Source of the DNA: a virus
Taxonomy: Duplodnaviria; Caudoviricetes
Direction: 5' to 3' (one strand)
DNA: 64,000 nt
Virus record (IMG/VR): IMGVR_UViG_3300014205_000185
Coordinates: 32,001 to 96,000 of that record
Position numbers and translations under genes: made by a program
The notes under the pieces: model-generated
What the model was told of the DNA's origin: nothing
Seen by the model: only the letters and a program-made list of their open reading frames with translations
Database searches by the model: none
Shown here: positions 878 to 29,122 of the stretch, one piece after another
Layout of the letters: each line of letters opens with the position of its first letter
How positions within the stretch are numbered: position 1 is the stretch's first letter

Positions 878-1087
878 ATGACGATCCACCCCAGCCATCA
901 CATGATCACTGGAAATGATGGAACGGTACTGGCTGGGCTCAAGTACTGCGCATCTTGCGGCTGGGTAGACGCCGCCGGCTACTCGTTGACGAAGAGCAAG
1001 CTCGCCGAGCCGTGTGCGTCGGCAGCTGCGCAGTCCCGACGTGGCCAGTCAGGCGAGGAGAACGAGGAGGAAATGCCCAGTGCCTAA
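878..1087 (+). CDS. small Cys/His-containing hypothetical protein
   Basis: AGGAG upstream, ATGA coupling, CxxC motif. Confidence 0.5.
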   Translation: MTIHPSHHMITGNDGTVLAGLKYCASCGWVDAAGYSLTKSKLAEPCASAAAQSRRGQSGEENEEEMPSA

Positions 1088-1718
1088 GCTGGACGACTAT
1101 GCCGATGAGCTGGCGGTAATGAACTCGATCCCGGTGATCAAGTACGTGCCGACTGAAGCTCCACCAGTTCTGGTGGAGACATCCCGAGACTACGTCCGGG
1201 AGATGAAGGCGATTCTCGACCAACATCTGACCAACGAGCAGTACAACGCTGCCGAGATAGCTCGGACGGTTGTCGCAGAGTTGCGCCGCGAGGACCCTGA
1301 CCTCCTCCTCGGTTGGCTATCGGTGCAGGCGGTTCGGCTTGTCCGGGAGACGATCCTCAAGCGTGACTCCACCTTCCGTGGCGAGAATCGGCAGCGAGCG
1401 GCCTACAGTACGTCCCGATCGGTATTCCGTGACGCCGCCGCGGAGTTCGAGCGCACGGGTGACGACAAGCCCTTGCGGTCTCGCTTCATGGCCGAGGTGT
1501 ACGTCATCCCTGACGGCTCACGAGTTCCATTGAGACTCATGACCGCCGACCAGTTGAACTTCGCTGCGGACGATTTCCAGCAGCGCGGCAGAGAGAGCCT
1601 CTTCCGGGAGGCATTCCTGCGCGCCGTGGCCACCCGCTGCGGCGATCGGACCGTGGAGGAGGTGTTTGACGAGGGGCAGCTCGCACGACTGTGGCTGTCG
1701 ATCGCTACTCCCAGATAG
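1080..1718 (+). CDS. alpha-helical hypothetical protein, candidate partner of the downstream RAMP
   Basis: GTG at 1080 downstream of GAGGAGG; about 212 aa; ends where the repeat tract begins. Confidence 0.7.
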   Translation: MPKLDDYADELAVMNSIPVIKYVPTEAPPVLVETSRDYVREMKAILDQHLTNEQYNAAEIARTVVAELRREDPDLLLGWLSVQAVRLVRETILKRDSTFRGENRQRAAYSTSRSVFRDAAAEFERTGDDKPLRSRFMAEVYVIPDGSRVPLRLMTADQLNFAADDFQQRGRESLFREAFLRAVATRCGDRTVEEVFDEGQLARLWLSIATPR

Positions 1719-1722
1719 CCAG

Positions 1723-1901
1723 CGACACGACTACTCCCCCCTGGCCGACCCACCTCTATTTCGACGAACCTCCCCCTGTCGCCGCCTCCCCGCCCAAGAC
1801 GACGCACCAGCGCGACCCACTTCATGTCAACCCAGTTGACTGCCCGACAAACCTGGTCTCACCCAGCCCCATTCACGCGCCGACTTTCCTTCGCGTGCAA
1901 C
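1723..1901. repeat. degenerate C-rich pentamer-periodic repeat tract (candidate guide-RNA array)
   Basis: CGAC at 1723, 1728, 1746, 1762, 1800, 1813, 1845 and 1881. Five of these continue NN-ACY. C occupies 16 of 18 positions spaced every 5 nt from 1783 to 1868. Confidence 0.6.
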
Positions 1902-1934
1902 AAAAAATCAACTATCCACAAAGGAGTAAGAACA

Positions 1935-2654
1935 GTGGCATCCGTATTCGCCAGCTACCAGGCCGAGAACTACCCGTACCGCTTCAGCGGCACTCTGCTC
2001 GTGGGCACCATCGCGGGCGGCATCCCCGCCGACCCGAAGGTCGCTGAGGGTTGGCTACGCACCAAGCTCGGCGTCGACAAGGAGGCTGAGATCCAGCGCC
2101 TGGTCGCAGAGACCATGGTCGAGCGGGGCGTGGACATGGCCGCCGCCACCGAGATCGTCAACGAGCAGAAGAACCTCAATGGGTTCAAGCGCGACGCGGA
2201 GAGGGGTCTCTACATCGAGGGACGTCAGCTCAAGGCCGCCCTCAAGGAGGCCACCTCGATTGCCGTCGCCGCCGGCAAGCTCTCCCAGCGTGGCTGGGGT
2301 ACTACGAACAAGGGCATCCTGAGCTTCCTCGCGGAGCACATGTTCGTGGTCGAGGACAAGCTGTTCCTGGGCGTCACTGAGCCCACGGGCGTAAACCAGC
2401 GCTTCGTGCACACGTTCCGCGGCACCGGCATCCAGTACGAGGAGTACGTGAACGAGGCGAAGGTCGACTTCACCGTCATCACGGACTTTGACTTCAGCGC
2501 CCGGGACTGGGCCGCTATCTGGTCGACCGGCGAACAGAACGGCATCGGTGCTTCCCGGTCGCAGGGCTACGGCCGCTACGAGGTCATCCGCTGGGACCGC
2601 GAGGTGCTCTCGACCCCGAGCAAGCCGCCGGCTCCGAAGAAGCCTGGCGCCTGA
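1935..2654 (+). CDS. stand-alone Cas7-group RAMP superfamily protein (Csm3/Cmr4/Csf2-like fold)
   Basis: AAGGAG RBS plus GTG. Motifs: N-terminal strand YRFSGTLLVGTIAGG, FKRD..GLYIEGRQLKAALKEA (cf. PYIPGSSLKGALR), and C-terminal G-rich loop GIGASRSQGYGRYEV. Confidence 0.85.
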   Translation: MASVFASYQAENYPYRFSGTLLVGTIAGGIPADPKVAEGWLRTKLGVDKEAEIQRLVAETMVERGVDMAAATEIVNEQKNLNGFKRDAERGLYIEGRQLKAALKEATSIAVAAGKLSQRGWGTTNKGILSFLAEHMFVVEDKLFLGVTEPTGVNQRFVHTFRGTGIQYEEYVNEAKVDFTVITDFDFSARDWAAIWSTGEQNGIGASRSQGYGRYEVIRWDREVLSTPSKPPAPKKPGA

Positions 2655-3468: not shown

Positions 3469-4278
3469 ATGAGACGCACTATCACTGCCCTGGTAGCGAT
3501 AGCTACGCTGCTCCTACTTCCACATCCGGCGCAGGCCGCCGCCCCTACGGCCGTCTCGCCCGTCACCGCTCCTATTCATGTGGAGCTGGGTGGCACATAC
3601 GTCACTCACGTCCTACCGGCCGACATCGCGACGAACGCGCAGTGGGGCGAGGGCGTCATCCGGATCACCACCCGCGTCTGTGGCAACGCTGACAACTGGG
3701 AGCAGGTTGCCGCGGCCAACGGCATCAGTCCTCCGGTGTACCTGGTCCTGCTCGACCAGCGGATCGTGGTCAGCTGCGCGGCCGGATCATCGCCCAAGAC
3801 TCCGGCATCAGCGCCAGCGGCGGCTCCTCCGGCGCCCGCGCCAGCCCCACAGGCGGCGTCGTCGGGCTGGGCTAACCCCGTCTGCGCTATGTCGATCGGT
3901 GACGGACTCGGCGCCGGACGCAATCACATGGGCGTGGATCTGATCGCCGACTATGGCACTCCAATCCGTGCCGCCGCGGCCGGTACCGTGTCGGTCGCTA
4001 CTCAGATCTACTACGACGAGCAAGGGCGCGTCAAGGGCGCTGGCAACTACACGACCATCAGTCATGGCAACAACGTCTGGACACAGTACTTCCATCAGTC
4101 CAAGTGGGCCGTGACGTCTGGTTGGGTTGCTACTGGCCAGATCATTGGGTACGTCGGCAGCACTGGCGACTCGTCGGGACCCCATCTGCACTTCGAGGTC
4201 CGAACCGGGAGCGCCTGGGGCTACGCCCAGGACCCGATCGCTTGGATGAACAACCACGGCGTCCGGCTCGGCTGCTAG
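3469..4278 (+). CDS. secreted M23-family peptidoglycan endopeptidase with LysM-like N-terminal region
   Basis: signal peptide ending AQA; WEQVAAANGI LysM-like segment; Pro/Ala linker; HMGVD (HxxxD) and GPHLHFE (HxH) zinc motifs. Confidence 0.9.
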   Translation: MRRTITALVAIATLLLLPHPAQAAAPTAVSPVTAPIHVELGGTYVTHVLPADIATNAQWGEGVIRITTRVCGNADNWEQVAAANGISPPVYLVLLDQRIVVSCAAGSSPKTPASAPAAAPPAPAPAPQAASSGWANPVCAMSIGDGLGAGRNHMGVDLIADYGTPIRAAAAGTVSVATQIYYDEQGRVKGAGNYTTISHGNNVWTQYFHQSKWAVTSGWVATGQIIGYVGSTGDSSGPHLHFEVRTGSAWGYAQDPIAWMNNHGVRLGC

Positions 4279-28080: not shown

Positions 28081-29122
28081 TGCTTGCCTGCTGGATCTCG
28101 TAGGCCTTCGTCCAGGCCTCTAACCAGCGCCAGGAGTTCAGCTCGATAGTTTGCGTCCGCATATGTTCGCGGCCTCTCTCTCCCAGGTCCTTGCGAAGCG
28201 CGTCATCGTCCATCAGGCGCTTGATCTCTTTGTACCAGTCCTTGGGGCGGTCCACGAGGAGCCCCGCGCCTGATTCCGCGGCGAAGCGTCGGTACTCGGT
28301 CCTGGGACTCGCCACCCAGGGAACGCCGGCCGCGGACGCTTCGATGACCTTTAATCGACTCTTCGAATGGTTGAACGGAGATATTTCCAGCGGGGCCATA
28401 GCCACCTTGAGCTTGGCGGTCTGCTCGACCCAGTTCTCCAGGGGAATGATCCCGGTTACATCGGGCTCCTCCTTGAGGCGCAGCGCGTCCTTCACCTTGG
28501 AGGGGGGGCCGACCACCCGGAACTTGTACCCGTCGTCAATCAGCTCCTGCACAGCTCGACCGCAGGTCTGTAGGTCGACGGGGTGAGACTGCGTCGTCCC
28601 AGCCCAGCCGAAGACGTCGTCTGGCTCGACTTCGATGTCCAGATAACGCTGTGGCACGTAGTTGTCGATGACCATTCCTCGGTCATGCTTGGCGTAGACC
28701 TTGAGCAACGTCCTGGTCGAGAGAGTCACCAGCGTGGCGGCTGCGCAGGCGTACTCAGCGTTCTTCCAGGAGTACGGCGTATTCGACCGAGGATGATAGT
28801 TCCCGTAAGCGGCGTTCTGCTTGTGGATCGCGGTGAGGTCGTCGTCCATGTCGATGACCACCGCTACGCCCTTCTTGCGAAGGAGCTTGATCACGGCTGG
28901 ATGCCAGTTATGGGCCACTCGCTGGAGCACGAGTACATCAGCACCTGTAGGTACCACCACGTCCACGACTTCTGCGTCAATGAACTTAATCTCCAGGCCA
29001 GAGCCGGTGTTAGGCCACTGGATCTCGATGTCGTGGCCCTGGCTGGCTAAGTGCTCGGCAGCCCAGATCAACCGGTAGTAGCCACAGCCTGCCGCGTCCG
29101 CGGGTATCACCAGAATCTTCAT
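28073..29122 (-). CDS. GT-B (GT4-like) glycosyltransferase, paralog of 25468-26427
   Basis: D..GCGYYRL, IDMDD, GWAG...H..D, APL...FN..KS.LK..E....GVP. Confidence 0.88.
   Translation of the reverse strand: MKILVIPADAAGCGYYRLIWAAEHLASQGHDIEIQWPNTGSGLEIKFIDAEVVDVVVPTGADVLVLQRVAHNWHPAVIKLLRKKGVAVVIDMDDDLTAIHKQNAAYGNYHPRSNTPYSWKNAEYACAAATLVTLSTRTLLKVYAKHDRGMVIDNYVPQRYLDIEVEPDDVFGWAGTTQSHPVDLQTCGRAVQELIDDGYKFRVVGPPSKVKDALRLKEEPDVTGIIPLENWVEQTAKLKVAMAPLEISPFNHSKSRLKVIEASAAGVPWVASPRTEYRRFAAESGAGLLVDRPKDWYKEIKRLMDDDALRKDLGERGREHMRTQTIELNSWRWLEAWTKAYEIQQASNG

Follow-up and report, generated by a model that had tools for sequence, protein, structure and literature searches.

The intergenic tract at 1719-1934 of the window (a 64,000-nt stretch of DNA, positions 32001-96000 of a 117,993-bp virus contig) is best explained as the spacer between a vap-like gene and the vipr gene of a phage VIPR locus, carrying a short and partly eroded copy of a guide-RNA array. 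The probability of this reading is put at about 0.8. VIPR (Viral Interference Programmable Repeat) is a CRISPR-like system, first described in 2026, with which phages silence genes by means of RNA guides (bioRxiv 10.64898/2026.04.26.720920, 10.64898/2026.04.26.720927). Its parts are a phage-encoded solo RAMP protein (Vipr), an accessory gene (vap) and vrRNAs composed of GGY/NN pentamers; each repeat is bound by one Vipr protomer, the NN bases pair with DNA, every third base of which is skipped, and the targets are competing satellites and prophages (bioRxiv 10.64898/2026.04.26.720920). Type II VIPR is represented by phage SUSP1 and a P. fulva prophage (bioRxiv 10.64898/2026.04.26.720920, 10.64898/2026.04.26.720927). 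The experiments in these papers concern enterobacterial and Pseudomonas elements; seven types are distinguished, and 'staggered arrays', NNNGG repeats and non-GG motifs in divergent arrays are mentioned. The SUSP1 locus was found again in KT454805, where vipr occupies 28474-29061 of the minus strand and the vrRNA, of canonical YNNGG form, has 12 pentamers.

The initial annotation of this DNA had proposed that semi-constant triplets in the tract are protein-binding registers, and that the variable dinucleotides between them spell a gapped target, beside a RAMP gene. This is essentially the published VIPR mechanism, so the kind is already known; and since the tract adjoins the phage's own Vipr gene, it represents a new example of a recently described system rather than a new kind. 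The proposal agrees with what the VIPR papers show by experiment for SUSP1, with the identity of the neighbouring protein as a Vipr homologue, and with the arrays of related phages, which obey the skip code. It goes further than the tract itself, where the period is marginal and no target was found.

Organization of the locus

The tract is bounded by the end of an ORF at 1718 and by the GTG start of a gene at 1935. The features of the region are as follows.

1080..1718, plus strand: U1, a conserved helical gene, candidate VIPR accessory (vap-like) gene
1719..1934, no strand assigned: intergenic tract, 216 nt; plus strand C 43%, G 17%
1723..1884, minus strand: eight GTCG (plus-strand CGAC) punctuation motifs, at 1723-1726, 1728-1731, 1746-1749, 1762-1765, 1800-1803, 1813-1816, 1845-1848 and 1881-1884
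1732..1746, minus strand: three-pentamer run, GGC-ca GGG-gg GAG-ta, then GTC
1766..1795, minus strand: six-pentamer run, GGG-cg GGG-ag GCG-gc GAC-ag GGG-ga GGT-tc, then GTC (unit 132-169 of the reverse-complemented tract)
1826..1840, no strand assigned: palindrome GTCAAC-CCA-GTTGAC
1849..1868, minus strand: four-pentamer run, GGC-tg GGT-ga GAC-ca GGT-tt, then GTC (parsed from the sequence)
1921..1926, plus strand: vipr ribosome-binding site AAGGAG
1935..2654, plus strand: vipr, solo RAMP protein of 239 aa, GTG start

On recounting, all coordinates and letter counts given for the tract by the initial annotation proved correct, including the eight CGAC positions, the hairpin at 1826-1840 and the occurrence of C on every fifth base in three stretches (7/7, 9/9 and 16/18). 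A VIPR locus is expected to have tandem pentamers (YNNGG or related) in runs of four or more beside vipr; the surviving runs here are short, at 3-6 pentamers. The run at 1849-1868 matches, on the minus strand, the GGY/NN form described in the VIPR papers, and that at 1732-1746 ends in 'TA GTC', the unit end typical of the family. The palindrome breaks the pentamer register and is seen in folds of both strands, while the predicted RNA folding of either strand of the tract is no more stable than that of shuffled sequences. Rfam gave no matches for the tract or for the left-end array of the same genome (see below).

Translation of the tract, which had been named as an observation that would speak against a guide array, is ruled out: the tract is non-coding, and the downstream homologues all start at the position of GTG 1935. 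The vipr frame also contains an ATG at 1824, with no stop between it and 1935. The starts of the homologues and the ribosome-binding site indicate that GTG 1935, and not ATG 1824, is the real vipr start; AGGAG-like sites precede the start in relatives as well.

Pentamer periodicity in the tract and in related phages

Statistics for the single tract were judged against dinucleotide-preserving shuffles. Autocorrelation at lag 5 has a z of 0.75 for base identity and of 1.6-1.7 for C (p 0.07), and lag 20 gives z 3.4 (family-wise p about 0.015). Minus-strand GG recurs at +5 eight times against 7.3 expected (p 0.45), and the longest run of C at spacing 5 is 9 (p 0.065). The best 18-step stretch holds 16 C, with p 0.005 for what is a post hoc statistic. 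The CGAC/GTCG motif is enriched, at 8 occurrences compared with 3.7 in shuffles (p 0.002). When Fourier power was taken over whole tracts, none showed a significant period of 5, which is explained by the phase shift that each GTC introduces, and short-lag autocorrelation was used in its place.

The relatives were sampled as 54 IMG/VR loci, 21 of them non-identical and used for tract statistics. In most of the 54, the vipr homologue is immediately preceded by a tract with 45-60% C and some 15% G; among the 21, its length is 170-1821 nt. Pooled autocorrelation over these 21 gives z 24.4 at lag 5, 16.8 at lag 10 and 9.7 at lag 15. The period of 5 that the initial annotation had expected to exceed shuffles is thus marginal in the single tract (lag-5 z 1.7) but overwhelming in the tracts of relatives, and the comparison of tracts beside RAMP homologues, which had been suggested as a check, shows the same motif and the same period at the same position in the 21 taken together.

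CGAC motifs like that in CCGACTACCC recur in the relatives' tracts with a spacing of 5n+3, which applies to 45% of CGAC-to-CGAC intervals compared with 22% in shuffles, with peaks at 3, 8, 13 and so on to 58. Around 425 CGAC sites, C occurs on every fifth base at a frequency of 0.75-0.86, with variable positions between, and the phase shifts by 3 at each CGAC. A logo on the G-rich strand (425 CGAC and 338 GTCGG sites) has GG at 0.8-0.9 every 5 nt, variable NN and the GTC insert. On this strand the relatives' tracts read (GG-n-NN)n. The units, most of them 5-8 pentamers long, are separated by a 3-nt GTC, and it is this separator that produces the 5n+3 spacing of CGAC on the plus strand. The third repeat base in this clade is mostly G and not Y. 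The register assigned earlier has to be corrected to GG-n-NN on the G-rich strand; the plus-strand triplet is not ACC-like, and the GTC insert within GTCG shifts the phase. Homologous unit pairs between loci numbered five, too few to gauge whether NN is hypervariable. By this comparison, the tract at 1719-1934 is probably a short, degenerate counterpart of the relatives' pentamer arrays.

In some distant relatives (L024:4193-5931, L043:78-2933 and L044:35-3826) the arrays lie downstream of vipr or flank the U1-vipr pair, in either orientation. As these loci differ in both respects, neither the position nor the direction of the array is fixed in the clade.

The Vipr protein and neighbouring genes

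The AF2 model of the 1935-2654 protein has a pLDDT of 73.7, and its top Foldseek matches are all Csm3/Cas7 (E 2e-5). With VIA, the model matches type VII, type III and Cas7-11 RAMPs at Z 9.2-8.0 overall, including 9.2 to 8yhd_A, 8.7 to 9g9a_D and 8.2 to 6ae2_B; the top match (Z 9.2) has an rmsd of 3.6 over 134 aligned residues. More than 1700 homologues were found, at 70-80% identity and all unnamed, forming 726 clusters at 50% identity. The sole homologue in an isolated phage, found by protein comparison, is a hypothetical protein of Microcystis phage Mae-JY09 (36% identity), and no DNA similarity to phage or plasmid records was detected. Neither Pfam nor PHROGs has a match for either of the genes flanking the tract, and a PDB sequence search with the family profile returned matches at chance level.

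Homology to Vipr is detectable only when profile is compared with profile. In hhalign, the family (43 sequences) aligns with SUSP1-type Vipr (31 sequences) at 92.6% and E 4.6e-7 over 134 columns, with the G-loops aligned; comparisons of the single sequence with SUSP1 Vipr were not significant (BLASTP E 3.2; hhalign E 0.24 and 0.006). On the strength of its fold, of the profile alignment and of the window having no repeat-spacer array, the protein is classed as a Vipr, a small solo RAMP homologous to the SUSP1-type family. In the same remote alignment, the residues that hold GGY in SUSP1-type proteins are not conserved in the family: the G-holding D177, W178 and R138 correspond to A206, S207 and E169, all of them invariant or almost so, and R179 aligns to the invariant R208, in a register that may be one residue off. 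Since the G-holding residues are replaced and the third repeat base is mostly G, the RNA contacts must differ from those of SUSP1. The replacements appear to point to altered RNA contacts, and not to non-membership in VIPR.

U1 has homologues in 35 of the related loci, on the same strand and directly upstream of the tract or of vipr, and the gene order in relatives is U1, tract, vipr. Its AF2 model is all-helical (pLDDT 85.7). Foldseek against the PDB found no match for it, Pfam and PHROG searches were likewise empty, no DNA-binding domain was recognised, and it has no similarity to SUSP1 Vap1. Just downstream of vipr is a 45-aa Cys-rich ORF at 2728-2865 (starting MRFVCDSCTNGQHEEC), preceded by a GGAGG site. 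A secreted M23 peptidase is encoded two genes downstream of vipr, at 3469-4278 (Pfam E 9.5e-25), and among the related loci it is shared only with the closest relative, L001.

A second array at the left end of the genome

Outside the window, at the left end of the same genome and 32 kb from vipr, lies a pentamer array of 1.65 kb (G000:C1:51-1700, locus L057). Its plus strand is G-rich, its lag-5 z is 8.6, it contains GTCG 50 times compared with 21 in shuffles, and it shows no codon pattern. It is the candidate for the main guide array of the genome. The RAMP gene and U1 are each present in one copy. Scans for promoters and terminators found no consensus flanking either this array or the tract at 1719-1934.

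The two ends of the contig carry a perfect 123-bp inverted terminal repeat (G000:C1:1-123 and 117871-117993, loci L057 and L058). The repeat covers the initial 70 nt of G-rich, array-like DNA and may be either a true linear-genome terminus or an assembly fold-back. A gene for a protein of 1131 aa lies at the right end (L058:489-3884, minus strand; genome 114488-117883) and has intein, Hint and LAGLIDADG homing-endonuclease domains.

Guide code and predicted targets

By homology with the SUSP1 system, one Vipr protomer would bind each pentamer with GG(n) buried and the NN bases exposed. [quoted passage not shown] The expected outcome would be the silencing of genes of competing prophages or satellites. 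The units of relatives were converted to NN-x-NN patterns by the published 1-nt-skip rule. A nine-pentamer unit of relative L010, CA-GA-CT-GG-CA-CT-GT-CT-CA, has 61 exact matches in IMG/VR, 47 of them in frame as HELGHLVLH (targets in L132-L192). The peptide is the HExxH motif of ImmA/IrrE anti-repressor proteases (Peptidase_M78), which often carry a fused HTH domain, and the matches are in proviruses of 34-73% GC. Relative L004 has the same unit with two CT-to-AT changes. The variant matches HELGHIVMH in an HTH-ImmA gene (L193), the one match in 401 genomes of class Actinomycetes, where the backward control gave 0.

A ten-pentamer unit of L010 matches at 20/20, in frame as AYRKLRAFVL, a provirus of Kribbella catacumbae DSM 19601. 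This was the only match in IMG/VR and the species-representative genomes, and the reversed-order control gave 0. The site is as follows.

L056:3944-3972 and L059:4852-4880: Kribbella target site, within a 696-aa ORF with no Pfam match

The match hints at the host range of L010; the other units of L010 gave no further matches to this provirus.

[quoted passage not shown] The gapped search by dinucleotides that had been suggested for this DNA was thus productive for relatives, with in-frame prophage targets, and not for the genome itself, for whose own units no 1-nt-skip target was found and IMG/VR gave no match. Exact scans of the collection were also empty for its own 10-pentamer unit, for the L002 homologue of that unit and for a 12-pentamer unit of L004. 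An own unit had 72 metagenome matches, which were out of frame and heterogeneous. They were judged to be noise because the pattern starts on the codon position with the highest GC and because their contexts have nothing in common. A local search with 84 units against 443 kb revealed no 1-nt-skip enrichment over shuffled units or other skip lengths, and the same was true against 584 kb of provirus loci, leaving aside the units that had been used to fetch those loci.

Comparison with known systems

The locus resembles VIPR in having a solo phage RAMP homologous to Vipr with a small conserved gene beside it. The clade shares with VIPR long non-coding tracts of pentamers with fixed GG and variable NN, which are clear in relatives and in the left-end array of this genome. 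In the units of relatives there is also one skipped target base, located on the codon wobble position, and the targets are lysogeny-switch and other prophage genes. It differs from the SUSP1 type in several respects. SUSP1-type vrRNAs are about 100 nt, with 9-16 repeats and a structured tail, whereas arrays in this clade reach 1.8 kb and consist of units of about 5-8 pentamers parted by GTC only. The G-loop is GASRSQG in this clade and GDWRPR in the SUSP1 type, the accessory gene U1 is unrelated to SUSP1 Vap1, and in most clade members the array is inverted relative to vipr and located between the accessory gene and vipr.

The Cas7 proteins of type III and type VII CRISPR systems (Csm3, Cmr4) are similar in their RAMP fold with a G-loop, in the binding of one protomer per short RNA segment, and in the thumb that interrupts pairing. 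They have a period of 6, bind RNA without sequence periodicity and need other Cas subunits and a repeat-spacer array, while the period here is 5 and there is no such array in the window. A 5-nt register is also known from TRAP, the trp RNA-binding attenuation protein, an oligomer that binds (G/U)AG-NN repeats in which the triplets are spaced by two variable bases. TRAP differs in its fold and its ring of 11 subunits, its variable bases carry no information, and it does not target DNA. Rho utilisation (rut) sites are alike in being C-rich, G-poor, unstructured RNA upstream of a gene, but no 5-nt period or CGAC motif would be expected of them, and the link to a RAMP gene would be unexplained.

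Strand of the RNA and alternative explanations

The G-rich strand, which is the minus strand here, seems likely to be the RNA. On it the order is conserved pair, semi-conserved base, NN, as in canonical GGY-NN, and this order is mirrored on the C strand. In the distant relatives L043-L045 the arrays are G-rich on the sense strand of vipr, on both sides of the operon, as in SUSP1, and the large left-end array of this genome is G-rich in the direction of all neighbouring genes. An alternative within the same VIPR system, considered rather unlikely, is that the C-rich sense strand functions as the RNA, being transcribed together with U1 and vipr and cut at CCGAC motifs, and that Vipr holds CC instead of GG. 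In most relatives the tract fills the U1-vipr gap to the ribosome-binding site, reaching within 12-30 nt of the vipr start. Expression of vipr then requires transcription of the sense strand, unless a promoter lies inside the array. An antisense promoter would also have no evident place, and for this reason the sense strand may be the RNA. Two further points in its favour are the replacement of the GG-contacting residues of SUSP1-type Vipr and the non-GG motifs reported for divergent arrays in the VIPR papers. The three observations on order and orientation given above argue against it. Target matches under the 1-nt-skip rule carry no strand information.

The tract itself may have lost its role as a source of guides. 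That it still makes them is somewhat doubtful; otherwise it would be a remnant that serves only as the vipr leader. A related proposal is that it is nothing but a leader or insulator, a C-rich Rho loading site that uncouples vipr from upstream transcription, with the pentamers as fossils. C-rich, G-poor untranslated RNA is the classic Rho loading site, and the plus strand has the right composition (C 43%, G 17%) and no stable structure; the periodicity is marginal at this position and the main array is elsewhere in the genome. Composition alone, however, leaves the enriched CGAC and the 16/18 in-phase stretch unexplained, relatives keep a strict pentamer order at the same position, and Rho loading sites are not known to need a 5-nt period, all of which makes the proposal improbable. 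A chance pattern in a compositionally biased spacer, with repeats of no function, would be in keeping with most of the single-tract statistics, which are not significant. It is contradicted by the family comparison, in which motif and period recur at the homologous position in 21 relatives (z 24), as well as by the CGAC enrichment (p 0.002) and by the adjoining Vipr homologue, and is therefore very improbable. Still less credible is a CRISPR-like array whose RNA lies on a Cas7 backbone with 6-nt periodicity, as the Cas7/Csm3 fold of the neighbouring protein might suggest. The period is 5 and the 'spacers' themselves would be GG-periodic; no direct repeats of 24-48 nt and no repeat-spacer arrays occur in the tract or in the window, and cas models give weak G-loop matches only. 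The period and the missing repeat-spacer structure contradict it.

Implications

The preferred reading, a short guide-array copy between U1 and vipr, implies that VIPR logic, itself a discovery only months old, extends to the large high-GC phages of a huge, uncultivated clade. The array format of this clade is much denser, with dozens of short GTC-punctuated guides per array, and the RNA-contacting residues differ. The locus is also a case in which a weak periodicity at one site became clear once the corresponding position was compared across relatives. These distinctive features may or may not fall within the seven described VIPR types. A speculative view, held with low confidence, is that this large conserved clade constitutes a type outside the seven. 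The arrays of such a type would run to kilobases, with at least 50 short guides parted by GTC only, and would either be inverted between the accessory gene and vipr or sit at a genome end within an inverted terminal repeat. Its G-binding pocket (GASRSQG) would be re-built, and its guides would be directed to invariant protein motifs such as the HExxH of ImmA/IrrE. The 216-nt tract would then be a live mini-array antisense to the vipr leader, possibly tuning vipr expression.

The guide for HELGHLVLH illustrates how, by skipping the wobble base, one guide can fit a conserved catalytic motif in prophages of widely different base composition (34-73% GC). If true, a single HExxH guide could match prophages of many hosts, whatever their codon usage. 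If confirmed, the clade would be natural material for determining the minimal VIPR guide length, for studying how arrays are processed without a structured tail, and for re-specifying the repeat-binding pocket.
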